Shown: in pieces, positions 2,312 to 13,171 of the stretch
How positions within the stretch are numbered: the stretch's first letter is position 1
How the letters are laid out: every line of letters begins with the position of its first letter
NCBI GenBank assembly: GCA_964595645.1
Contig: CAZQQT010000002.1
Span: 128,001-192,000 of the forward strand
Direction of reading: 5' to 3'
DNA: 64,000 nt
Origin: an uncultured Thermococci archaeon
GTDB taxonomy: Archaea > Methanobacteriota_B > Thermococci > Methanofastidiosales > B48-G16
Notes under the pieces: model-generated
Told to the model about the DNA's origin: nothing
The model's database searches: none
What the model saw: only the letters and a program-made list of their open reading frames with translations
Position numbers and translations under genes: made by a program

Positions 2312-3384
2312 TTTAAATCCTCCAGTACTTCTTTTACAGTTTCTTGTGGGACGTCGTTCCGCATGGCCACCGTACCTATCTCCTCAGGAAGTACGAATGT
2401 GATGTGATTCCGTTGTGTCTTTTTATCGTACTGCATCCTCTCAAGAACAGCACTCGTACTGACTTCGGGGAGCGTTGTGGGGAGTCCGGTCTGGACGATA
2501 AGTTCTTCTTGCCGGTGTACAGCCTCGGTGTAGAGAATTCCCATTTTTTCTGCAATCCGTGCGGCGGCACACATTCCTATTGCCACAGCTCCTCCATGAG
2601 ATAGTGTAAAATTGGTAACAGCTTCAAGTGCATGCCCCACTGTGTGTCCATAGTTCAGTATCTTTCGCACTCCAATCTCCCTTTTATCCTTCTCCACAAC
2701 ACCGATCTTTATCCTACAACATTTTTCTATGATATCTTCCAGCGGAGGAGAAAGAAGAAGGTTTTCTCTACTTTCTTCAAGCGTCTCAAAGAGAGAAGCA
2801 TCTCTGATCATTGCATATTTTATTATCTCTGCAACACCATTTTTCATCTCCTCTTCAGGAAGCGTGGAAAGTACCTCTGTATCTATAAGGACGAGCTCCG
2901 GATCTTTGAATGCGCCGATGATATTTTTCGCATGTGTGTAGTTTACCCCTGTTTTTCCACCGATGCAGCTGTCTACTTGAGCGAGAAGAGTAGTGGGAAG
3001 ATGAATGAGCGGGAGACCTCTTAGATAGGTGGCGGCCACAAAACCTGCAAGATCTCCCACTACTCCCCCACCCAACGCGATTATAGGCGTGAATCTCTCT
3101 ATTCTGTGCTGTAGGAGCTCTTCGTAGATCATCGATGCCATTTCCAACGATTTGCTTTTTTCAGTGTCAGGAATTTCAAGCACCGTTAGCTCGAATTCCT
3201 CATTCAGTAAACTTTTCTTCACGGTCTCTCCATGCAGCTCATTGATCGTTTTATTTGTCACAATTACTGCTTTGGAAGAGTACCCTCTTTTTTTCAGCAT
3301 TGGCCCGATGGTGGAGAGGATCCCACGATCTATAAAGATCCCATAGTTGTTCTGAGGGTGATGGACAGTCAGCTTCCGTCTCAT
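2308..3384 (-). CDS. aroB: 3-dehydroquinate synthase
   Basis: [50 protein letters not shown]. Confidence 0.97.
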
Positions 3385-4430
3385 ATATCTATCATCCTCT
3401 TAAGCTGATGCATCATCTCTGCGAATTGATCGGTTGTGAGCGATTGGTTTCCATCACATAGCGCATCAGCGGGTCTGTTGTGTACCTCTACCATGACACC
3501 ATCTGCACCTGCCGCAATAGCGGCCTTTACCAGAGGGATTACAGCACTCCGTTTCCCCGTGGCATGACTCGGGTCAATGATTACGGGGAGGTGGGTGAGT
3601 TCATTGAGTACAGGAACAGCACTGATATCCAGGGTATTTCTTGTTGCAGTCTCAAATGTCTTGATTCCCCGTTCACAAAGTACCACATTCGGGTTTCCTT
3701 GCGACATAATATACTCTGTTGCAAAAAGGAGATCTTTGATCGTGGCATTCATACTTCGTTTTAGGAATATGGGTTTGGACTGTTTTCCTACTTCCTTGAG
3801 GAGGGAGAAATTCTGCATGTTCCTGGCTCCGATCTGTAACATATCGGAGTATTTCTCTACCAAAGGCACATCCCGTGTGTCCATCACCTCTGTGACGATA
3901 GGGAGTCCTGTTTCTTCCCGTGCCTTTTCGAGAAGTTTTAATCCCAGTTCACCCAACCCCTGAAAGGAGTAGGGGGATGTTCGCGGCTTGAATGCGCCGC
4001 CGCGGAGAATTGATGCTCCCTCTTTCTTTACTCGGTGTGCGGTCTCCAGTAACTGCTCTTTGGTCTCAACACTGCAGGGACCGGCAATGACTACTGGTTT
4101 TTCACCTATAGCTATTCCGCCTACATCTATTACCGTCTTTTTGTCTTTAAACTCCCTTCCAGCCAGAATATATCGTTGGGGGGAAAATATCACTTCTTTT
4201 ACTTCCTGCAGCTGTGATATTTTTTTCACGTCGGAAATATTTTTTGCTACAACCACCGGAGCCGAAAACTCTACCGAAAAGACATCAGAACAGGTTTTTT
4301 TCAGCTGTTCCTCTATCTTAGATCGTTGCAATTTCGATAGATTTTTCTTCAGTACAACTGCGTACAATCCCCTGCTTTCTTTTCTCTCCAACTTAATTGT
4401 TTTTAGAGAAGGATGACCAATCGAACTCAT
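3381..4430 (-). CDS. aroF: DAHP synthase type I-beta with N-terminal ACT-like segment; start uncertain (AUG 4430 preferred, has GGAGG SD)
   Basis: [39 protein letters not shown] motifs. Confidence 0.93.
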
Positions 4431-4518
4431 AGTCATCTCCTCCACAATCTACACAGGCCACCTCATCCTGTCCATTGTCGTTTTCACTATTTTCGTTTCC
4501 TTCACTTTTACATTTCAT
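4393..4518 (-). CDS. Leader peptide of the aro operon, 41 aa: [41 protein letters not shown]
   Basis: Manual translation; AGGTGG SD upstream; lies just downstream of BRE/TATA; aromatic codons only at Y30, F32, W34, F37; paralogous to the pheA leader. Confidence 0.8.
4407..4443 (-). promoter_or_regulatory. Hairpin sequestering the DAHPS SD and start region
   Basis: GGAGG-A-GAUGACUA pairs with UGGUCAUC-CUUCU (13 bp including G-U pairs, one bulged A). Confidence 0.7.
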
Positions 4519-4553
4519 TTATTCCACCTTTCCCCTGATATAGACATGCATGC

Positions 4554-4570
4554 ATTTAAAAGGTTTTTGG
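4554..4570 (-). promoter_or_regulatory. BRE/TATA promoter of the aro operon
   Basis: Minus strand CCAAAAACCTTTTAAAT, about 35 nt upstream of the leader ATG; nearly identical to the pheA promoter. Confidence 0.75.
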
Positions 4571-4640
4571 TGCATTTTTATGTACATGTAGTAGTTCATT
4601 GACTATGTAGATCAATATTCATCAAATTTTCGGACACAGA

Positions 4641-5411
4641 CTAAAGATTTTTTCTTAGCGTTTCGATAAAGGTTACCATCTCACTATAGCTTTTTTTCGT
4701 GACTATATCTCTAAAATTTTCTAGCTGAGTAGTAATTTTCTCAATTTCTGCAAGCGAGTAGGGAGCAAAGAGTATTTCAGCAAGAAGATGGTTATCTTCC
4801 TCTAACAGTTTTCGTGCTACTTCCTGATGTCTTGTGAATGTTGTTCCTGGAACAGCTTTCTCCGGGAGACAGGCAGCAAAAATCAGGGAACAAATAAAAG
4901 GAAGCGCAAGCGAGTCTGCCATGAGGCTATCATGTTCATCGAAGGAACATTCGTATATATGGACACCACGAGTGAGAAAGAACCTCTTAAAAAACTGTTT
5001 GGCTGCAGTATCAGATTCTTCTATAATGATAACATTCTCTTCTTTCAAATCATCAAATGTAGTGAATCTGGGACCGAACATTGGATGGATCGAGGCATAC
5101 CTGTTTCCACACTCTTGGTAGTACAACGGCAGTTTTCCTTTAATGGAAGCAATATCCACAAGAATACAGGCCGATGGCAAGTATGGTGCAACTTCCTCAA
5201 AAACCTCGACGGTATGCTGCAGACTCACCGCATTTATCACCATTTCAGGGTCGAAGGATTTAACCTCTGCGATAGCATCGAGATGAGTAACTCCCTCTAC
5301 TGCCTCTCTTTTCTCTTTATCTTCATCGTAGATTGCTATCTCATGATTTTTTGAGAGCTCACGGGCCAGCCATGAGCCCATATTTCCAACACCTATCACC
5401 GCGATCCTCAT
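4641..5411 (-). CDS. tyrA: Prephenate dehydrogenase; true start MRIAVIG at 5411
   Basis: GVGNMG Rossmann motif, DIASIK, HPMFGP, EHD; ATGA overlap with the pheA stop. Confidence 0.92.
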   Translation of the reverse strand: MRIAVIGVGNMGSWLARELSKNHEIAIYDEDKEKREAVEGVTHLDAIAEVKSFDPEMVINAVSLQHTVEVFEEVAPYLPSACILVDIASIKGKLPLYYQECGNRYASIHPMFGPRFTTFDDLKEENVIIIEESDTAAKQFFKRFFLTRGVHIYECSFDEHDSLMADSLALPFICSLIFAACLPEKAVPGTTFTRHQEVARKLLEEDNHLLAEILFAPYSLAEIEKITTQLENFRDIVTKKSYSEMVTFIETLRKNL

Positions 5412-6463
5412 AGGATCGCCTCCGGGTAGCAGCCGAGGAATTTGTAGATTAGTGTTCGATCTTTCATCTCGCGAAGCATCTCTTTTATTCTCTCCTCTTC
5501 CACAGATCCCTGAAAATCGAGTAGAAACATGTAATGCCCGGGTCTTTCTTTTATAGGCCGGGATATTATTCGTGTGAGATTTATGTTTTTCTCGGTAAAT
5601 ATACGAAGCAGACGGTGGAGGGCACCGGGTTCGTGCTTTACTGAAACGACAATAGAACATTTTGTTCCCTTTCCACAGGGAGCAGAGGAGACAACCACGA
5701 ACCGGGTAAAATTCGAGGACACATCCCCGACGTTTCTTTTTATTATTTCGAGATTGTAACGTTCTGCACATAGTGTACTTGCGATAGCTGCAGTGGCAGG
5801 TGGGAAGGTATCTGCGATCATCCTAGCAGCACCAGCAGTATCGTAGTATGGAACTATCTCGATTCCAGTCTCCGTAAGAAAGCTCCTGCACTGTGCCAAT
5901 GCCTGCGGGTGAGAGTATACTTTTTTAATCTCGCTGAGTTCAGTGCTTGGTGGTGCGAGAAGAGCATGGTGGACAGGAAGCTGTATCTCTCCCACTATTG
6001 GAAGCTCATACGCTATTAGAAGATCCGTTACTTCTGTCACCGTTCCTTCGATTGAATTCTCAATAGGGACAATTCCCAGATCAAACCATCCATGCTCCAC
6101 CGCCTCGAATATTTCAGCAAAGGCTGTGCAGGGGATGGGCACCATTTTTTCGCTGTATCGTTTTGCAGCCATCTCCCCGTAAGCACCGTGTTCACCCTGA
6201 AATCCTATAAGTGCATGTTTTTCTCTCTGGAGTTTTTTACTTTCTGCAATTATTTTCTTAAAAATTTGTGAAGCAAACTCGTCATCTATCAGATCATGGC
6301 AGTACGTTTTAACAGTATTTATAACGCACTGTTCTCTCTTTTCATCAGTGATTTTCTCCTTCAGTTTCGTAGTCCGTAATGCCAGCTCCATTCGTTCGTT
6401 CAGCAGCGAGATAATTTCACGATCTATCCGGTTTATCTCCTCCCTTAGAAGTGTTAACTCCAT
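5408..6463 (-). CDS. pheA: Chorismate mutase / prephenate dehydratase (P-protein)
   Basis: LREEINRIDREII..LNER (CM), FQGEHGAY, PIENSIEG, SHPQALAQC, NFTRF, ACT domain NLTRIISRP. Confidence 0.96.
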   Translation of the reverse strand: MELTLLREEINRIDREIISLLNERMELALRTTKLKEKITDEKREQCVINTVKTYCHDLIDDEFASQIFKKIIAESKKLQREKHALIGFQGEHGAYGEMAAKRYSEKMVPIPCTAFAEIFEAVEHGWFDLGIVPIENSIEGTVTEVTDLLIAYELPIVGEIQLPVHHALLAPPSTELSEIKKVYSHPQALAQCRSFLTETGIEIVPYYDTAGAARMIADTFPPATAAIASTLCAERYNLEIIKRNVGDVSSNFTRFVVVSSAPCGKGTKCSIVVSVKHEPGALHRLLRIFTEKNINLTRIISRPIKERPGHYMFLLDFQGSVEEERIKEMLREMKDRTLIYKFLGCYPEAIL

Positions 6464-6573
6464 TCTTCCCCCCTCCAGAGAGATCCGTCCCTCTTTATCA
6501 CTGACACTCTCAGAAAAGTAATACTCTGTCCTTCACATTGATTCGTCCGGGAACGACTGGAAACAGAAGTCAT
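6454..6573 (-). CDS. Putative 39-aa relay uORF starting inside the pheA leader and ending over the pheA start
   Basis: GGAGGGAG SD then ACT-ATG at 6573; open to TAA within ATGGAGTTAA, a 10-nt overlap with pheA. Confidence 0.45.
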   Translation of the reverse strand: MTSVSSRSRTNQCEGQSITFLRVSVIKRDGSLWRGEEWS

Positions 6574-6649
6574 AGTCGCTCCCTCCGCTATCTCGGCAGC
6601 TTAACATATCATCTCCGCCATCCTCATTTTCTTGTTCTCCATTGTTCAT
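6533..6649 (-). CDS. Leader peptide of pheA-tyrA, 38 aa: MNNGEQENEDGGDDMLSCRDSGGSDYDFCFQSFPDESM
   Basis: Manual translation; AGGTAGGT SD-like site; just downstream of TATA; aromatic codons only at Y26, F28, F30, F33; paralogous to the aro leader. Confidence 0.8.
   Translation of the reverse strand: MNNGEQENEDGGDDMLSCRDSGGSDYDFCFQSFPDESM
6549..6583 (-). promoter_or_regulatory. Hairpin sequestering the internal SD/AUG in the pheA leader
   Basis: GGGAGCGACU pairs with AGUCGUUCCC (10 bp, one G-U). Confidence 0.7.
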
Positions 6650-6680
6650 GATACCTACCTAGACTCTCCTACACAGCTGT

Positions 6681-6696
6681 ATTTAAAAGGTTTTGG
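6681..6696 (-). promoter_or_regulatory. BRE/TATA promoter of pheA-tyrA
   Basis: Minus strand CCAAAACCTTTTAAAT, about 31 nt upstream of the leader ATG. Confidence 0.75.
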
Positions 6697-6827
6697 CACG
6701 CCAGATTTGATATGCAAGAGGCAAAAAATGTGTATGTTTTGAATCCATAAACCCTAAAAGGTATGTGTCTCTATGAGCAGGATTCCCAAAGAAAAACTTC
6801 TTTACTATCTTTTGGATACACTATTCA

Positions 6828-7607
6828 TCAGATATTCTTTGTAGGGAGACTCATTTCTTTGACGTAGGTCGTAACCTTCTCATAACTATGTGTTCTTCTT
6901 ACAATACCACTGCCAACGATTACTCCATCTGCTCCGAGATGAAGTATCTCTCGCACATGAGTGGGATGTGAGATCCCAAATCCTACACAGAGAGGAATGT
7001 CTGTGGCGGCCCGCATTCGTTTCATACATTCATGAACCTCTTGGGAAACTCTGTCCCTTTCACCGGTCACACCTAAAAGTGATACCACGTAAAGGAATCC
7101 TGTGGTAGCCTTTATAATCTTTTTAAGTCGTTTATTTGGGGTGATGGGAGATGCCAAAAATATATTTGCAAATTCATGCTCTCTTGAAAGTGTTATAAGC
7201 TCAGAAGCTTCTTCTGGTGGGAGATCAGCAGCTATCAATCCATCGGCCACCTCTGCGAAATCACTGATGAACTCGTTGATACCGTACTGCAGAATAATGT
7301 TGTAGTATGTCAAGAGTACAATAGGGATATCACGGTTCTTACGGGCCTTTTTTATTACTTTTAAGACCTTTTCCGGCGTTGTGTCGTTTTTTAGAGCTCT
7401 TTGTACTGAATTTTGTATTGTTTTTCCATCTGCTACCGGATCGGAGTGAGGAATACCCAGCTCTATAATATCTGCACCATTTTTTTCGAGAACTTCTATG
7501 AGTTTTACGGTATCTTCCAATGAAGGATCACCACAGGTGATATAGGGAATAAATGCTCTTTGATTTTTTTCCCGCAGTTTTTCGAACGTTGTATTAATGC
7601 TATTCAT
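6828..7607 (-). CDS. trpA: Tryptophan synthase alpha chain
   Basis: [40 protein letters not shown]. Confidence 0.97.
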
Positions 7608-8800
7608 ATGCGTACCTCCAAAAGTCTTACTCCTGTCTCCACATCTTTATCCCCCCGTCCTGAAAAGTTCACCACAACGATATCATCTCTTTCATACTGT
7701 TCCTTCATTTTGTGAAGATACGCAAGAGCGTGACATGTTTCAAAAGCGGGAATAATTCCCTCTGTTTTTGACACAAACTTGAAGGCATCGAGTACTTCTC
7801 TATCAGTAGCATAGTCCGCTTTTACCCTTCCGCTGTCAACAAGGTATGAGATCTCTGGACCACGGGCGGGATAGTTCAGTCCTGCACTTCGGGAGTAGGT
7901 CCGTGATATCTGTCCGTGATCGTCTTGGAGAAGGAAGGTATAGGCACCGTGAAGTACACCCTTTTTTCCTCCGGCAAATACAGCAGTATGTCGTTCTCCT
8001 TCTAGTCCTTCACCTCCTCCTTCTACAAATATGAGATTCACCTCTTCAGTGATGAACGGAAAGAACGCACCGAGGGCGTTAGAACCGCCGGAGCCGCAGG
8101 CGACGATAGCGTCGGGCAGTCGTCCTTCTTTCTCTAATAACTGATTCTTTATTTCTTTCCCGATAATGTTCTGAAACTCCCTTACTATCATGGGAAAGGG
8201 GTGAGGTCCTACTGTCGAGCCGATGAGATAGTGTGTACCCTCTACATTAGCAACCCAGTCTCGGAGAGCCTCATTCACTGCGTCTTTCAGAACACCGGAG
8301 CCTCCGGTGACAGGTGTAACTGTTGCTCCCAGAAGCTTGATCTTCAATGCATTGAGTCTCTGTCTTTTTATGTCTTTTTTCCCCATAAATACTTCTGTTT
8401 CTAAGTCCAAAAGAGCTCCTGCAGTTGCTGTAGCAAGCCCATGTTGTCCAGCGGCGGTTTCTGCGATTATTCGCTTTTTTCCCATCTTTTTTGCAAGCAA
8501 TGCCTGACCTATTGTATTATTCAATTTATGAGCGCCACCATGGACCAGATCCTCTCTTTTTAGATATATAGTGAATCCAAAATAGCGCGAAAGAGATTCG
8601 GAGAGATAGAGAGGTGTAGGCCTTCCGGCGTAATCTCTGAGATATGAATTCAATTTCTCCCGAAATTCTGGGTCTTCTTTATATTGCGTATACGATTTTT
8701 CCAGCTCTTCTAAGGCAGGCATCAATGTTTCCGGTGCAAATTGTCCACCAAACTCACCAAATTTTCCATTATTATCTGGAAAAGAGTATTTTTCTCTCAC
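7604..8800 (-). CDS. trpB: Tryptophan synthase beta chain (TrpB1)
   Basis: [46 protein letters not shown]. Confidence 0.97.
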
Positions 8801-9380
8801 TCTCTACACCTCGTGCCTTTTCGATGAACGCCTTCATTAACTGATGATTCTTTTTTCCATCCCCTTCCACCCCACTGGAAACATCAACTCCAAATGGTGC
8901 TACCTCCTGCACGGCTTCTACTACATTCCAGGGCGTAAGCCCGCCCGCTAAAATTAACGGTTTTGTTACCGTCTCGTTGATTTTTCCGGTGATTGACCAG
9001 TCGTGAACCTCACCACTCCCATATCCAGAATCGATAAGCACCATGTCTACTTTGTTTTTTATTTTTGTGAACTGTTCAGCTGTGAACTCGGAATGGAGAT
9101 ATCCTCGTATGACTCCACAGTGAAAGGGAGGGAAGGTATCTTCATATAGCTGGATATAATCTGCCGTGGTGGTTATTTCTTCGAGATTCTCTGCATGAAG
9201 TGTCACTGCCACTGTAGCAATTGAAGGAGGGACTAACATCATTAATTTTTTTGCCTTTTCGATCGAAAGATTTCTTTTACTCTCCTCTGTTTCGACAACA
9301 AATCCCAAAGCGTCCGGATAGAGTGTTACCGCATCTTTAAGTTCCCTTTTGGAGGTAATACCACATATCTTTATCCACAT
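8772..9380 (-). CDS. trpF: Phosphoribosylanthranilate isomerase
   Basis: [33 protein letters not shown]. Confidence 0.95.
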
Positions 9381-10126
9381 ACGATCAGCTCCTGTAATTT
9401 CTCCTCTGGATTCTCTGCAGTCATAAGTGCTGTGCCCACAAGAATGCCATCAATATGCTCTTTCACCGTTAATACCTGCGATCTGGTGCTGAACCCGCTC
9501 TCACTTATCAGCGGTTTTTCTACTGAGACATTTTTTAGGATTCTGCATGTATGGAAAATGTCTGTGTTCATCGTTCGCAGATCTCTGTTATTTATACCGA
9601 GAAGATCTGCTTCCGTTTCTGCTGCCTTTACCAGTTCTTTTCGGGAATGGACCTCCAGTAACACCTCGAGTCCATGCTCATGGATATATTCTATCATTTT
9701 ATCGAGATCGAAGTACCCACGATCTGCCAGTATAAAAAGCACCAAGACAGCATCTGCACCAATTCGTTCTGCAGCATCAACCTGTACTTCAGAGATGACG
9801 AAATCCTTCATTAAGAGAGGAAGATCGACCTGTTCTCTCACCTGTGCGAAACGATGTAAGCTTCCTGCAAAGCTCTTCGGTTCGGTGAGAATGGAGAGTG
9901 CAGCACAGTACTGCTCCATGGTACGTATCATCGTTGAAGGATCTTCTTCTTTTCTTAGGATCCCTTGGGAAGGCGATGCATATTTCAGCTCGCCTACTAA
10001 TGAGAAAGAGTTGTGTTCTAAGGTTTCTCTGAGTGATTTTCCCTTCTTTGCTTCCGTAGTTATATTGTAGTATCCTTCTCTCACTGTGTGTAGCGTTTCA
10101 TTCACTAGCATATCAAGGATATCCAT
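9371..10126 (-). CDS. trpC: Indole-3-glycerol phosphate synthase
   Basis: ELKYASPSQG, LSILTE, LMKDF, GINNRDL, SESG. Confidence 0.96.
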   Translation of the reverse strand: MDILDMLVNETLHTVREGYYNITTEAKKGKSLRETLEHNSFSLVGELKYASPSQGILRKEEDPSTMIRTMEQYCAALSILTEPKSFAGSLHRFAQVREQVDLPLLMKDFVISEVQVDAAERIGADAVLVLFILADRGYFDLDKMIEYIHEHGLEVLLEVHSRKELVKAAETEADLLGINNRDLRTMNTDIFHTCRILKNVSVEKPLISESGFSTRSQVLTVKEHIDGILVGTALMTAENPEEKLQELIVCG

Positions 10127-11158
10127 CTACTCACCAAACCTTTCTAGAACAGAGATATCTCCACCTTCTCTTACCAGCAGCTCAAGTTTTCTAAACGCTT
10201 GTCCAGAATCAATGCTTTCTTCAGCAATTTCCATCGCCTTTTTAAGATCGTTTGTTTTTCCTCCTGCAATTATTGCCAGTGCTGAGTTTGCTACGACAAT
10301 GTCCCTTTTTGATCCTTTTTCTCCTTTTAAAATATTGTATATTGTTCTTGCACTTTCCTCCATTCCATTTGTTTTTAAATCGCTTAAATGGGCCTTTTCA
10401 AGGCCAAAATCCTTTGGTGAGAGCTCATATATCTTTACATCCTCTTTTATTTCTGCCACGAGCGTTTTCCCCAAGATGGTAACTTCGTCCATGCCGTCTC
10501 CATGAACAACGAATGAGTGATCCACGCCGAGCCGTTCTACTGCATGAGCAATTTTTTCAATGATAGTTGGCGTATACACACCAAGTACTTGGTGGTCAGC
10601 ATCTGCGGGATTTGTTAACGGACCAAGAATATTAAACACAGTCCGCAACGCTAGGTTTTTTCGTACAGGCATTGCATATCTCATTGCAGGATGAAAAACC
10701 GGAGCGAACATAAATCCGATACCTATTTTCTCAATAATTTTTTCTATCTTTTCTGGCGCTGTCTTCATAGAGACTCCCAGAGCCTCCAGGACATCTGCAG
10801 AGCCTGCGTTGCTTGTGACAGATCTATTCCCATGTTTTGCGATGGGAACGCCCGCCCCGGCAGCAACGAACATTGCGGCTGTAGAAATATTGAATGTCTT
10901 TATTTTATCGCCCCCCGTTCCACAGGTATCGACAAGTCCTTCCTTCATAGGGGCTATCTGTATACACTGTTCTCTCATGCTTCGGGCAAACCCTGCAATT
11001 TCTTCAGAGGTTTCACCTTTCATTCTCAGTGCGATGAGAAATGCGGATATTTGTGTCTTTGATGCCCTTCCTTCCATTATGTCGTTCATACTCTCAAAAG
11101 AAGTCTCTTCTGAGAGATTTTTTCCTTCTGCCAGATCTTTTATTGCGCTTTCGATCAT
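10127..11158 (-). CDS. trpD: Anthranilate phosphoribosyltransferase
   Basis: DTCGTGGD, FNIST, AKHGNRS, RTVFNILGPLTNP. Confidence 0.97.
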   Translation of the reverse strand: MIESAIKDLAEGKNLSEETSFESMNDIMEGRASKTQISAFLIALRMKGETSEEIAGFARSMREQCIQIAPMKEGLVDTCGTGGDKIKTFNISTAAMFVAAGAGVPIAKHGNRSVTSNAGSADVLEALGVSMKTAPEKIEKIIEKIGIGFMFAPVFHPAMRYAMPVRKNLALRTVFNILGPLTNPADADHQVLGVYTPTIIEKIAHAVERLGVDHSFVVHGDGMDEVTILGKTLVAEIKEDVKIYELSPKDFGLEKAHLSDLKTNGMEESARTIYNILKGEKGSKRDIVVANSALAIIAGGKTNDLKKAMEIAEESIDSGQAFRKLELLVREGGDISVLERFGE

Positions 11159-11706
11159 TTCCTCACCTTCAAAAAGTTTTTTATTATTTTTTTGCCCTCT
11201 TTCGTGAGAATAGATTCTGGATGAAATTGTAACCCTTCTACAGGATATATTTTATGCCTAACTCCCATAATTTCCCCTTTTTCGGACCGAGCTGTTACAT
11301 AAAGGTCTTTTGGGATCTCAGACACTATTAAAGAATGGTATCTTGTAGCTTCAAATGGGTTAGCTATTCCTTTGTATACACCTTTTCCGTCATGGGAAAT
11401 TAATGATGTTTTTCCATGAACTATTCTTTTTGCTCTTTCTACCTTCCCCCCAAACGCTAAGGCAATAGCCTGATGCCCGAGACAGACGCCGAGTAGGGGA
11501 ACATGTTCCCCATGGTGCTGTATACGTGCCATGATCTCTGGGATACTTTGCGGATGACCCGGGCCTGGACTCACCACAATTTTTGCGTATTTATCGATTC
11601 TGAACTGTTCATCATTTCTTACCACACTTACTGTCGTATACTCGCCGATATACTGGACTAGATTGTAGACAAAGGAATCATAGTTATCGATAACAAGCAC
11701 CGTCAT
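11155..11706 (-). CDS. trpG: Anthranilate synthase component II
   Basis: IDNYDSFVYNL, SPGPG, GVCLGHQ, QFHPES. Confidence 0.96.
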   Translation of the reverse strand: MTVLVIDNYDSFVYNLVQYIGEYTTVSVVRNDEQFRIDKYAKIVVSPGPGHPQSIPEIMARIQHHGEHVPLLGVCLGHQAIALAFGGKVERAKRIVHGKTSLISHDGKGVYKGIANPFEATRYHSLIVSEIPKDLYVTARSEKGEIMGVRHKIYPVEGLQFHPESILTKEGKKIIKNFLKVRK

Positions 11707-13067
11707 TCTAACACCTCGTGAACAGCCTTTTTCATTGCCTCGAGTTTTTTTTCTGTTTCAAAGTACTCTTTCTCAGGGATAGAATCTGCAACAATTCCTG
11801 CACCGGCCTGCATCGTCAACACTCCTTTATTTACAGTGAGGGTCCTTATTGTAATTGCAAAGTCCATGTCACCGTTATATGAAAAATATCCCACACCCCC
11901 TGCGTAGATATCCCGTTTTTCTGGTTCTAATTCCTCGATAATTTCCATGGCTCGTATTTTTGGAGCACCACTTACAGTACCGGCTGGAAATGTTGCCCTG
12001 AAGAGGTCAAAGGCGTCTAGATCTTCACGAAGTATACCAGAAACACTGGAAACTAAATGTTGAACATGACTGTACTTCTCAACAACCATAAAGTCTCCCA
12101 CCGTCACCGATCCGTACTCACAGACCTTTCCGAGATCGTTTCTTCCGAGATCGAGGAGCATTACATGTTCTGCTCGTTCCTTTTCATCTGTCAGCATCTC
12201 TTCTGCAAGCATTGCATCTCTTTCTTCAGTTTTTCCTCTTCTCCGAGTTCCAGCAATAGGCCGTACCCACGCTTTTTTACCCTCTAGCCGCACCAACATT
12301 TCAGGGCTACTTCCCAGTACAAAAAGATCGTCAAAGTGTAGAAAGTACATATAGGGTGAGGGATTGATTTTCCTGAGAGCGCGGTAAAGAAGGAGAGGAT
12401 CACAGTCTACCTCAGCTCTGAGTTTTCGTGAGAGAACGACCTGGAAAATATCCCCTGCGTAGATATACTCCTTGGCTCTTTGCACTATTTTCTCAAATGC
12501 TTTTTTTGAGATAGAGGAATAAAATTTTTTGTGTGTTCCATTAGTAGATAGTATCTTTTTTTCCTTCAACTTTTCTTCAAGACACGCAATTCGTTCCTCC
12601 GCACGGCTGTACGGTTCATGGCTGTCCAATGTAACAAGGATGTATGTCTTCTTGGCGACATGATCGAATACAATACAGTCATCGGTTACCATGAAGAGTG
12701 CATCGGGAATGGCATTCTCTACATTTTCTTTGGGTAGCCTTTCAAACTGCCTCACCATATCATAAGAAACAAACCCCACGATGCCTCCAACGAATCTCGA
12801 TATATTTTTATCTGAGCATGTTTTCTTTTGTACAAACTTTTCCAGAGATTCTATGGACTTATCCTTCAGCGAGATATGTTCCCTGGAGATGCCAAGGAAG
12901 GAGAATCTAGCAGTTTTATCAAACTCCGCACTTTCAAGGAGAAAAGAGTAGGGCTTTTTAATCCTCAAATAGGCTTCTAAAGGTGAAATGTTTAGTTTAA
13001 TCTCCTTAGACAGACATATTTTTTCATAATCTTTTCTTACATCTTCAAATTCTGATCTCGATAACAT
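11703..13067 (-). CDS. trpE: Anthranilate synthase component I
   Basis: LLES, NPSPYM, PIAGTR, KERAEH, FPAGTVSGAPK. Confidence 0.96.
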   Translation of the reverse strand: MLSRSEFEDVRKDYEKICLSKEIKLNISPLEAYLRIKKPYSFLLESAEFDKTARFSFLGISREHISLKDKSIESLEKFVQKKTCSDKNISRFVGGIVGFVSYDMVRQFERLPKENVENAIPDALFMVTDDCIVFDHVAKKTYILVTLDSHEPYSRAEERIACLEEKLKEKKILSTNGTHKKFYSSISKKAFEKIVQRAKEYIYAGDIFQVVLSRKLRAEVDCDPLLLYRALRKINPSPYMYFLHFDDLFVLGSSPEMLVRLEGKKAWVRPIAGTRRRGKTEERDAMLAEEMLTDEKERAEHVMLLDLGRNDLGKVCEYGSVTVGDFMVVEKYSHVQHLVSSVSGILREDLDAFDLFRATFPAGTVSGAPKIRAMEIIEELEPEKRDIYAGGVGYFSYNGDMDFAITIRTLTVNKGVLTMQAGAGIVADSIPEKEYFETEKKLEAMKKAVHEVLE

Positions 13068-13105: not shown

Positions 13106-13171
13106 TTAGAATCGCCACTCCTCTAATAAAGAGAGAAATTCCAGTGTTCCCAGTAGGGGCTTACTCTGCAT
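13106..13171 (-). CDS. Candidate leaderless trp leader peptide MQSKPLLGTLEFLSLLEEWRF
   Basis: ATG lies 29 nt from the first T of TTTATAAA, the expected TSS position; single Trp codon at position 19 of 21. Confidence 0.45.
   Translation of the reverse strand: MQSKPLLGTLEFLSLLEEWRF

Follow-up and report, generated by a model that had tools for sequence, protein, structure and literature searches.

A hairpin-closed DAHP synthase start nested in a leader gene: a candidate translational gate in the aromatic operons of a Methanofastidiosales archaeon

The genes considered here lie in a 64,000-nucleotide (nt) window of an uncultured Thermococci archaeon (order Methanofastidiosales, B48-G16); the window is the whole stretch of DNA that was analysed, positions 128,001 to 192,000 of contig CAZQQT010000002.1 (contig C2 in our numbering) of assembly GCA_964595645.1 (genome G000), and coordinates below count from its first letter. 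On the minus strand, the gene for DAHP synthase (DAHPS) is preceded by a small leader open reading frame (ORF) within which the enzyme itself appears to begin, at a start codon that is predicted to be closed by a hairpin and that is overlaid by leader codons for Tyr, Phe and Trp. The explanation that best accounts for these features is a translational gate built into the leader gene, a reading drawn from comparison of sequences and one that we consider about evenly poised between right and wrong.

The aro leader is a translated gene

The elements of the module in front of DAHPS are as follows.

4570-4554, minus strand: BRE/TATA-type archaeal promoter of the aro leader (CCAAAAAC + CTTTTAAAT), read from the sequence
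4528-4524, minus strand: Shine-Dalgarno (SD) sequence of the leader, GGTGG, 5 nt upstream of the leader ATG and matching the 16S 3' end
4518-4393, minus strand: leader ORF, 41 codons plus stop, with an acidic N-terminal part free of aromatic residues and with aromatic codons clustered at the nested start
4444-4430, minus strand: 5' arm of the hairpin, holding the nested SD and the A of the AUG, from RNAfold and the module alignment
4443-4439, minus strand: nested SD, GGAGG, formed by the leader Gly-Gly codons, 8 nt ahead of AUG 4430
4431-4417, minus strand: loop region with the putative sensor codons Tyr 4431-4429 (which holds the AUG), Phe 4425-4423 and Trp 4419-4417, followed by a second Phe at 4410-4408, from module comparison
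4430-3381, minus strand: DAHP synthase coding sequence, 349 residues, from the nested ATG 4430-4428
4419-4404, minus strand: 3' arm of the hairpin, a CU-rich anti-SD-like run formed by the leader Trp-Ser-Ser-Phe codons, from RNAfold and the module alignment
4395-4393, minus strand: leader stop TAA, ending 38 nt past the first base of the nested ATG

To place these elements in an evolutionary context, eight versions of the module from about five organisms were compared, comprising four leaders of DAHPS genes and four duplicated copies before pheA. The DAHPS type is represented by the window, by genome G001 of the same genus (locus L002), by the JGI contig L032 and by the Logan/ENA contigs L131 and L132, while contigs L047, L048, L049 and L050 were reached through a search with PheA and are arranged like a second module of the window, which lies before its own pheA gene.

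By several marks of coding sequence, the small ORF is a real translated leader. It has its own SD and ATG, and an AGGTG-type SD lies upstream of the leader ATG in six of seven modules, the seventh having a leaderless geometry. Since the 16S 3' end of this genome reads ...GATCACCTCCT, GGAGG and GGTGA can be taken as true SD sequences here. Across 804 nt of seven modules the leader frame contains no stop (16 and 36 stops in the other frames), leader lengths range from 29 to 45 codons with all length differences in frame, and the leader ORFs were called by gene callers in several relatives. The same promoter motif precedes the pheA leader and every related module, and transcription starts were placed by TATA spacing. 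The shared motif was considered as a specific operator and rejected, because it is the generic strong-promoter consensus of G000 (168 matches in the genome).

It is very improbable that the small ORF encodes a functional acidic peptide acting in trans, its overlap with DAHPS being mere gene packing. Several leaders do share a motif around Cys-x-x-Cys-Gly-Gly-Asp-Asp-Tyr, as might be expected of such a peptide; however, the N-terminal two thirds show little conservation, vary in length and are in one version basic rather than acidic, and no relatives of the leader peptides were found outside these modules among 5.8 billion proteins. In the part that is conserved, third codon positions are conserved as well, which argues for a constraint on the RNA.

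DAHP synthase begins inside the leader

The ATG at 4430-4428 lies in the +1 frame relative to the leader, overlaps its Tyr codon and is in frame with DAHPS. An earlier sequence-only reading of this DNA had proposed this nested start, and both the coordinates and the comparison with relatives agree with it. The nested SD is kept in all modules as GGAGG, GGGGG or GGAG at a spacing of 8-11 nt, SD-N8/9-ATG is found in all three further DAHPS loci (G001, L032 and L131), and the public gene call for this very protein also starts at 4430. The overlap between leader and nested frame measures 38, 38 and 38 nt in modules of the DAHPS type, 47 nt in L131, and 41, 35, 47 and 38 nt in those of the pheA type. 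In the stretch that runs from the leader stop to the first regulatory-domain strand of the enzyme, comparison of G000 with L032 gives 11 synonymous and 3 non-synonymous substitutions in the DAHPS frame (0-1 and 13-14 in the other frames); since substitutions are mostly synonymous in that frame only, this stretch is evidently translated in the DAHPS frame, and L032 offers no alternative in-frame start before the strand.

The same reading had named a downstream TTG as the start to be compared with this one. Initiation at TTG 4366-4364, or at another internal codon, would make the leader overlap and the hairpin irrelevant, and it is hardly credible. The TTG does coincide with the first regulatory-domain residue in an alignment with Thermotoga maritima DAHPS, but it is CTG or CTC in G001, L032 and L131, it has no SD at proper spacing, the nine codons ahead of it evolve as DAHPS-frame coding sequence, and no conserved internal start was found further into the gene among the relatives compared. 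By this comparative evidence, the DAHPS start is the nested AUG 4430 and not the TTG, and the TTG case, which would have overturned the earlier reading, does not hold. A shorter DAHPS without the regulatory domain, made from an internal start, was rejected for lack of any such conserved start. Two more in-frame starts lie just upstream, GTG 4445-4443 and ATG 4436-4434 (minus strand), the latter forming an ATG-ACT-ATG doublet that is kept in most modules. Because it is only 2 nt from GGAGG, the upstream ATG is unlikely to serve in ordinary initiation, but it could matter if a sliding subunit selects the start.

The enzyme is a type I-beta DAHP synthase with an N-terminal ferredoxin-like regulatory domain, of the T. 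maritima type. It matches Pfam DAHP_synth_1 and aligns with the solved structures 1RZM and 4GRS (E 1e-92 to 1e-102; query residue 70 aligns with chain residue 52). In the T. maritima alignment, about 20 extra N-terminal residues, encoded by the overlap, stand ahead of the regulatory domain.

A conserved hairpin closes the nested start

In free mRNA, the nested SD and AUG are, as judged from folding and covariation, closed by a conserved hairpin. RNAfold pairs 4444-4430 with 4419-4404 at -17.0 kcal/mol, compared with -10.0 +/- 2.3 for shuffled sequences (z -3.0; 3 of 200 shuffles fold as well). When seven modules are aligned, 90.9% of the cells of the 11-pair stem are paired, against 34-60% with a slid partner. 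Both partners have changed in five stem pairs (U-A has become C-G, for instance, and G-C has become A-U), and 1 of 500 shuffles was as good; it should be noted that the sequences are related and the events not independent, and that the counts are slightly conservative because the lower stem uses two registers. A CU-rich anti-SD-like run forms the 3' arm in every module, 11-26 nt past the AUG. The hairpin with its Trp-Ser-Ser-Phe arm, which the sequence-only reading had described, is both stable for its composition and conserved.

Other RNA structures found less support. A second helix across the leader stop had been suggested as a competitor of this stem. It is present in the window (4410-4403 with 4392-4385, -7.7 kcal/mol), but its energy is no better than that of shuffles (-5.8 +/- 2.2) and no counterpart exists in the other modules, so it was rejected as incidental. 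An upstream decoy for the anti-SD arm (AGGAUGA 4468-4462) was rejected because relatives lack it, and T-box-like direct reading of the loop by tRNA because a tRNA could not be spanned by so small a loop. A search of the locus for terminator-like hairpins with T runs gave 0 sites, and no run of at least five T lies within 260 nt downstream of the aro leader, in agreement with the earlier reading, which had seen no terminator. At the gathering score, Rfam matched two tRNAs only in the 64-kb window and no cis-regulatory family.

The module was duplicated before pheA

A second copy of the module precedes pheA-tyrA in the window.

6649-6533, minus strand: paralogous leader ORF before pheA-tyrA, 38 codons, with Tyr and three Phe codons and no Trp, from sequence reading
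6583-6549, minus strand: paralogous hairpin, 6583-6574 paired with 6558-6549, nested ATG 6573-6571 at the loop edge (-20.9 kcal/mol, z -2.2; compensatory changes relative to the aro stem)
6573-6454, minus strand: nested 39-codon coupler ORF, a putative decayed DAHPS N-terminus, with its stop 10 nt past the pheA ATG at 6463

Here too, GGAGG is followed after 8 nt by the nested ATG, but the frame that it opens no longer leads into DAHPS. The coupler of L048 clearly resembles the DAHPS N-terminus, and those of L047 and of the window do so recognisably; on this resemblance the coupler ORFs are decayed DAHPS N-termini. Such an origin indicates that the whole unit, from the promoter through leader and hairpin to the nested start, was copied together. 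Each of the four pheA modules has an open nested frame of 39-74 codons whose end lies 10-14 nt beyond the pheA ATG, and the four frames together contain no stops in 673 nt (25 and 9 in the other frames). Because the frame has been kept open until just past the pheA start, translation from the nested AUG would be what the module delivers; the pheA couplers thus provide strong, although indirect, support for a translational output, as the sequence-only reading had supposed.

In two relatives that have the pheA-type module only (L049:3005-4735 and L050:2894-4594), genes of the DKFP route, encoding a DeoC-like aldolase and a type II dehydroquinate synthase, are found downstream in place of DAHPS. 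As the coupler in these lineages descends from a DAHPS N-terminus, the module seems to have outlived its source enzyme there. Runs of T8, T7 and T5 occur inside coupler ORFs (L048:1866-1873; L049:535-541 and 594-598), and could be archaeal oligo-T terminators whose read-through is affected by coupler translation. No such run was found in any DAHPS-type module or in the pheA module of the window.

Aromatic codons lie on the nested start

Within eight codons the aro leader encodes Tyr, Phe, Trp and Phe, following 29 codons without any aromatic residue. This pattern is general: the first 14-31 codons of every leader lack aromatic residues, and the cluster stands at the nested start. Tyr overlaps the nested AUG in all eight modules, and Phe follows two codons past Tyr in seven of the eight, despite variable residues in the nested frame. 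Trp is present in all four DAHPS leaders and in none of the four pheA-tyrA leaders, a division that is what the logic of the pathway demands. The best single evidence for codon sensing comes from the recent copies L131 (DAHPS type) and L048 (pheA type), which are identical at 80 of 82 leader positions and at 28 of 29 positions from arm to stop, yet differ at 5 of 15 bases in the loop. These changes turn Asp into Ala, Asp into Asn and Trp into Ser and alter Phe synonymously, while Tyr is kept. Other amino-acid leaders in the same genome and order, namely a candidate Trp leader before trpE and a leader with a run of Tyr and Phe codons in genus g3 (both described below), add to this case. We consider it probable, on these comparisons, that the aromatic codons act as amino-acid sensors. 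Sensing of free amino acids by the nascent peptide, in the manner of TnaC, would be another way to read the cluster; against it, conservation extends to third codon positions, which the RNA explains.

Ribosome geometry and the wiring of the gate

For each module, the RNA was refolded with the stretch covered by a ribosome masked (P-12 to P+14, footprint sizes taken from bacteria and eukaryotes). In the window, the P site lies at -4, +2, +8 or +17 from the AUG when the A site holds Tyr, Phe, Trp or the second Phe, respectively, and the start is covered or abutted; over all modules, pauses at aromatic codons place the P site between -4 and +23 and clash with the start. Two ribosomes need about 27 nt between their P sites, as in collided ribosomes. 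The start is clear only in the last one to five positions (P site at least +27), and the P site reaches +29 to +41 when the last sense codon or the stop is in the A site. A terminating ribosome still covers 0-5 nt of the anti-SD arm, and in L048 and L131 it covers none of it. Since it covers the start, a paused ribosome is unable to unmask it for a second ribosome.

This geometry bears directly on the sequence-only reading, which had the position of the ribosome on the leader decide whether the site is used. Spelled out as a wiring, slow translation of the Trp-Ser-Ser-Phe codons would keep the 3' arm occupied and the hairpin open, a standby small subunit would enter at the AUG, and starvation would raise the use of the site. 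In the window module a ribosome on the 3' arm leaves the SD outside its footprint and raises its unpaired probability from 0.34 to 0.72, and standby binding (the concept as set out in the available part of PMC5934652) might take place on the leader RNA further upstream, which is rich in purines and unstructured. However, three of seven modules (L032, L047 and L048) have no aromatic codons on or after the 3' arm, the universal ones being those on the AUG and in the loop. Moreover, the P-site distances of 8-23 nt fall short of the roughly 27 nt required for two ribosomes, and queued leader ribosomes would sit on the SD. Footprint-constrained folding, which had been suggested as a check, thus agrees with that proposal insofar as masking the 3' arm opens the SD partly, but the paused ribosome collides with the start that it was meant to free. 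On account of this steric clash and of the three modules without aromatic codons on the arm, we take this wiring to fail, and hold it to be quite unlikely.

Alternatively, the leader may be a mere opener ORF that couples translation by unfolding the RNA, with no sensing involved, as in the plasmid pair tap-repA or in MS2 coat-lysis: the terminating ribosome would cover the anti-SD arm while a second one loads at AUG 4430, regulation would fall on leader initiation, and the aromatic codons would be by-products. Such coupling agrees with the fact that in every module the nested AUG has just been cleared by a ribosome that stands at the last codon or stop (P sites 29-41 nt apart), with an MS2 case described in the same terms at a spacing of -50 nt (PMC12548453), and with the alignment, in which RNA needs dictate the U of UAU and the third base of GAC. 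It leaves unexplained, however, the burst of 5 changes in 15 loop bases that removed Trp and kept Tyr and Phe, the presence of Trp in DAHPS but not in pheA leaders, and the kept Phe codon over variable nested residues; in addition, the ribosome at the stop covers little of the arm, or nothing. We regard plain coupling as rather unlikely.

A third possibility is that the pause acts on the RNA rather than on the start. Stationed some 90 nt from the 5' end, a ribosome could block 5'-to-3' decay, as in erm-like stabilisation, or could hinder premature termination and polarity (FttA), leaving the hairpin-locked start as a separate coupling device. Such an effect would have the right sign, with more mRNA on starvation, and Euryarchaea possess 5'-3' exonucleases. 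The T8 and T7 runs of the L048 and L049 couplers also fit this view, and FttA-dependent polarity is cited in PMC12548453. On the other hand, action on the RNA gives no reason for placing sensor codons on the nested AUG in all eight modules, the DAHPS-type modules and the pheA module of the window have neither T runs nor a terminator-like site, and naked RNA downstream of a stalled ribosome should favour polarity and not prevent it. This explanation is improbable in our view.

The sign of the response narrows the choice further. Occlusion, queueing, polarity and MS2-type coupling would all lower output upon a stall, which is the wrong sign. Three routes have the right one, namely a hand-over by stall-triggered re-initiation, protection of mRNA or anti-polarity by the parked ribosome, and frameshifting. 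The last of these is disfavoured by the codons: +1 frameshifting at hungry codons into the DAHPS frame was rejected as highly unlikely, since the P-site codons GAC, GAG and GAU are unable to re-pair in +1 and a perfect SD-AUG is present.

The explanation that we favour starts from what sequence comparison shows: DAHPS is translated from AUG 4430, which together with its GGAGG lies inside the 41-codon leader ORF, and the conserved, covarying hairpin with its anti-SD-like CU-rich 3' arm shuts this site in free mRNA. Only ribosomes translating the leader would then reach or open the nested site, so that synthesis of DAHPS and of the coupled aroB-aroD-aroE would follow the leader ribosome; this dependence is very probable. 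The time that a ribosome dwells on the nested start would be set by charged tRNA-Tyr, tRNA-Phe and tRNA-Trp, with Trp read only in the leader of the common pathway. In the copy before pheA-tyrA, duplicated as a unit, the old DAHPS frame would serve as a coupling ORF that brings ribosomes to the pheA start. As for the wiring itself, a paused ribosome may give up at a hungry codon, whereupon its small subunit, held by GGAGG, would re-initiate at the AUG 1-11 nt away. Normal termination would take place 35-47 nt downstream, too far for re-initiation, and the hairpin would close, while a basal level might be maintained by MS2-type unfolding behind the terminating ribosome. Hungry codons would in this way act as conditional stop codons, and Pelota, delivered by the ordinary archaeal elongation factor, could split such stalls. 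Re-initiation coupling works in archaea and fades beyond about 30 nt, according to the available parts of PMC6728339 and PMC10666635, and its range is also treated in PMC12548453. Hand-over is favoured among the wirings as the only one that accounts for the position of the sensor codons on the start, although we can advance it only tentatively, as a possibility that is much more likely wrong than right.

Several considerations weigh against the gate as a whole. The needs of SD, AUG and stem force much of the Gly-Gly-Asp-Asp-Tyr conservation, third positions included, and Tyr and Phe codons could arise incidentally from the U that precedes the AUG and from the CU-rich arm. In any case, few aromatic codons, which are U-rich, would be expected in the 5' half of the leader, given its high purine content. 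The eight modules represent a few related lineages and are partly paralogues, and their counts are not independent. When the 3' arm is masked, the unpaired probability of the SD rises only from 0.14-0.59 to 0.33-0.73 (partition function). With a ribosome parked on the start, every simple translational model gives less DAHPS, which is the wrong sign for a biosynthetic operon. Finally, we know of no precedent for the hand-over and of no archaeal example of the event that it requires, the splitting of a ribosome stalled on intact mRNA.

Comparison with known systems

Escherichia coli trpL, pheL and hisL likewise consist of a short ORF with a cluster of end-product codons, the set of codons being specific to the operon. 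Here, in contrast, terminator, antiterminator alternative and U tract are all absent, and the leader overlaps the structural gene by 38 nt. Having neither a terminator nor alternative helices, the module is not a trpL-type attenuator, which upholds the distinction drawn in the sequence-only reading. To our knowledge, archaeal RNA polymerase makes no use of hairpin terminators.

Translational attenuation of the erm/cat kind and the mycobacterial poly-Cys leaderless small ORFs (bioRxiv 10.1101/834739, as far as its available part goes) share with the module a leader ORF, a hairpin-sequestered SD, pausing as the signal and the lack of a terminator. In those systems, however, the pause site lies upstream of the arm masking a downstream SD, and the paused ribosome frees the site without covering it, whereas in this module the upstream arm is itself the SD and the start is overlaid by the pause codons. 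Because its pause site occludes the start, the module is not an attenuator of the erm/cat type. In the MS2 coat-lysis pair, as here, a +1-frame start inside the upstream ORF is hidden by a hairpin, the upstream stop lies tens of nt downstream (-50), and the terminating ribosome can keep the structure open without occluding the start (PMC12548453); a comparable stop distance is found here. The present case differs in its leader of 29-45 codons with a promoter of its own, in the amino-acid-specific codons on the nested start, and in belonging to a cellular archaeal biosynthetic operon from which the module was duplicated to a second operon.

Closest in purpose is aroR-aroF of Corynebacterium glutamicum, in which a leader peptide mediates translational control of DAHP synthase by Phe and Tyr (PMC7356990). 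The system is bacterial, the available part of that source mentions no nested start, and the likeness is one of description only. Archaeal termination-reinitiation at overlapping gene pairs, as described in the available parts of PMC6728339 and PMC10666635, resembles the ending of the couplers 10-14 nt past the pheA ATG and the 4-nt overlap of DAHPS and aroB. Compared with the same accounts, the favoured wiring is alike in having the nested AUG within range, but termination at hungry sense codons is not known from them, and the real stop, 35-47 nt away, lies beyond the efficient range. Our literature search found no published leader-peptide control of amino-acid operons in Archaea and no description of a nested, hairpin-locked start overlaid by aromatic codons. 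The new part of the design is thus the nested, hairpin-locked start.

The aromatic supra-operon and the distribution of the module

The minus strand from 3381 to 13067 forms a single co-directional aromatic supra-operon, in the order trpEGDCFBA, leader, pheA-tyrA, leader, DAHPS-aroB-aroD-aroE-(aroK).

13067-6828, minus strand: trpEGDCFBA
6463-5408, minus strand: pheA
5411-4641, minus strand: tyrA
4430-3381, minus strand: DAHP synthase, followed by aroB, aroD and aroE

Three internal promoters are found in this region, each followed by a separate small ORF. One of these, a 21-codon ORF before trpE (13106-13171, minus strand), has a TATA element near 13199-13192, whose spacing suggests a leaderless transcript, and ends in Trp-Arg-Phe-stop 36 nt ahead of the trpE ATG. 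The ORF is kept in G001 (L033:1400-1465) with equal length and the same Trp-Arg ending, and is a candidate Trp leader of the ordinary type, situated upstream of its gene. A second frame from 13176, with Trp-Glu-His-Trp, is not found in G001. Genus g3 of the same order (L003-L018, e.g., L004:924-1069) has a 23-codon leader that ends in three Tyr, Phe, Ser, Phe, Arg and Tyr, precedes an operon of chorismate mutase and tandem DAHPS, and is nearly invariant as DNA in 14 species. An 8-bp helix of GGUAUCAA with UUGAUACC surrounds its aromatic codons, and a long stem joins the 5' half of the leader with the region after the stop. Having no nested start, this leader represents a different attenuator design.

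In the searches made, the module was confined to this genus and a few metagenomic relatives. A pattern scan of 34 genomes of the order found it in G000 (twice) and G001 only, the three other matches lying inside large ORFs, and when the whole G000 genome was searched for SD-ATG starts inside small ORFs that have an SD of their own, the module was found in the two aromatic operons alone. A metagenome scan with TyrA returned only bacterial-type loci, 43-45% identical and without the module. Likewise, a scan of species-representative genomes with a PheA profile led to Micrarchaeota, Deltaproteobacteria and others, in which the upstream leader/nested-ORF module is absent. The nearest relatives of PheA (P-protein, 5408-6463, minus strand) outside the lineage are 50-58% identical and belong to Micrarchaeota, Planctomycetota and Deltaproteobacteria rather than to neighbouring archaeal orders, and pheA may have been acquired by horizontal transfer. 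The genome of 1.97 Mb is 99.96% complete; its 16S gene scores 1568 bits against the archaeal small-subunit model and has a G+C content of 55.5%, which suggests a mesophile. DNA of the window is present in microbial-mat metagenomes.

Implications

At the level of annotation, the leader ORFs should be recorded as real features, with DAHPS beginning inside one of them. The case is informative because the output is defined and the start is locked by a hairpin within the leader, and because evolution appears to have supplied natural experiments: a second operon received a copy of the module, the N-terminus of the enzyme decayed there to a pure coupling ORF, and the Trp codon disappeared from the leader whose pathway does not end in Trp. 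What results is a puzzle of geometry, in which the sensing ribosome occupies the very site that is meant to be activated. Its answer would reveal either a novel role for ribosome rescue and re-initiation or a previously unrecognised rule of archaeal translational coupling. If true, stall-triggered re-initiation would be a new way of converting amino-acid starvation into translation, contained in a portable module of about 200 nt.

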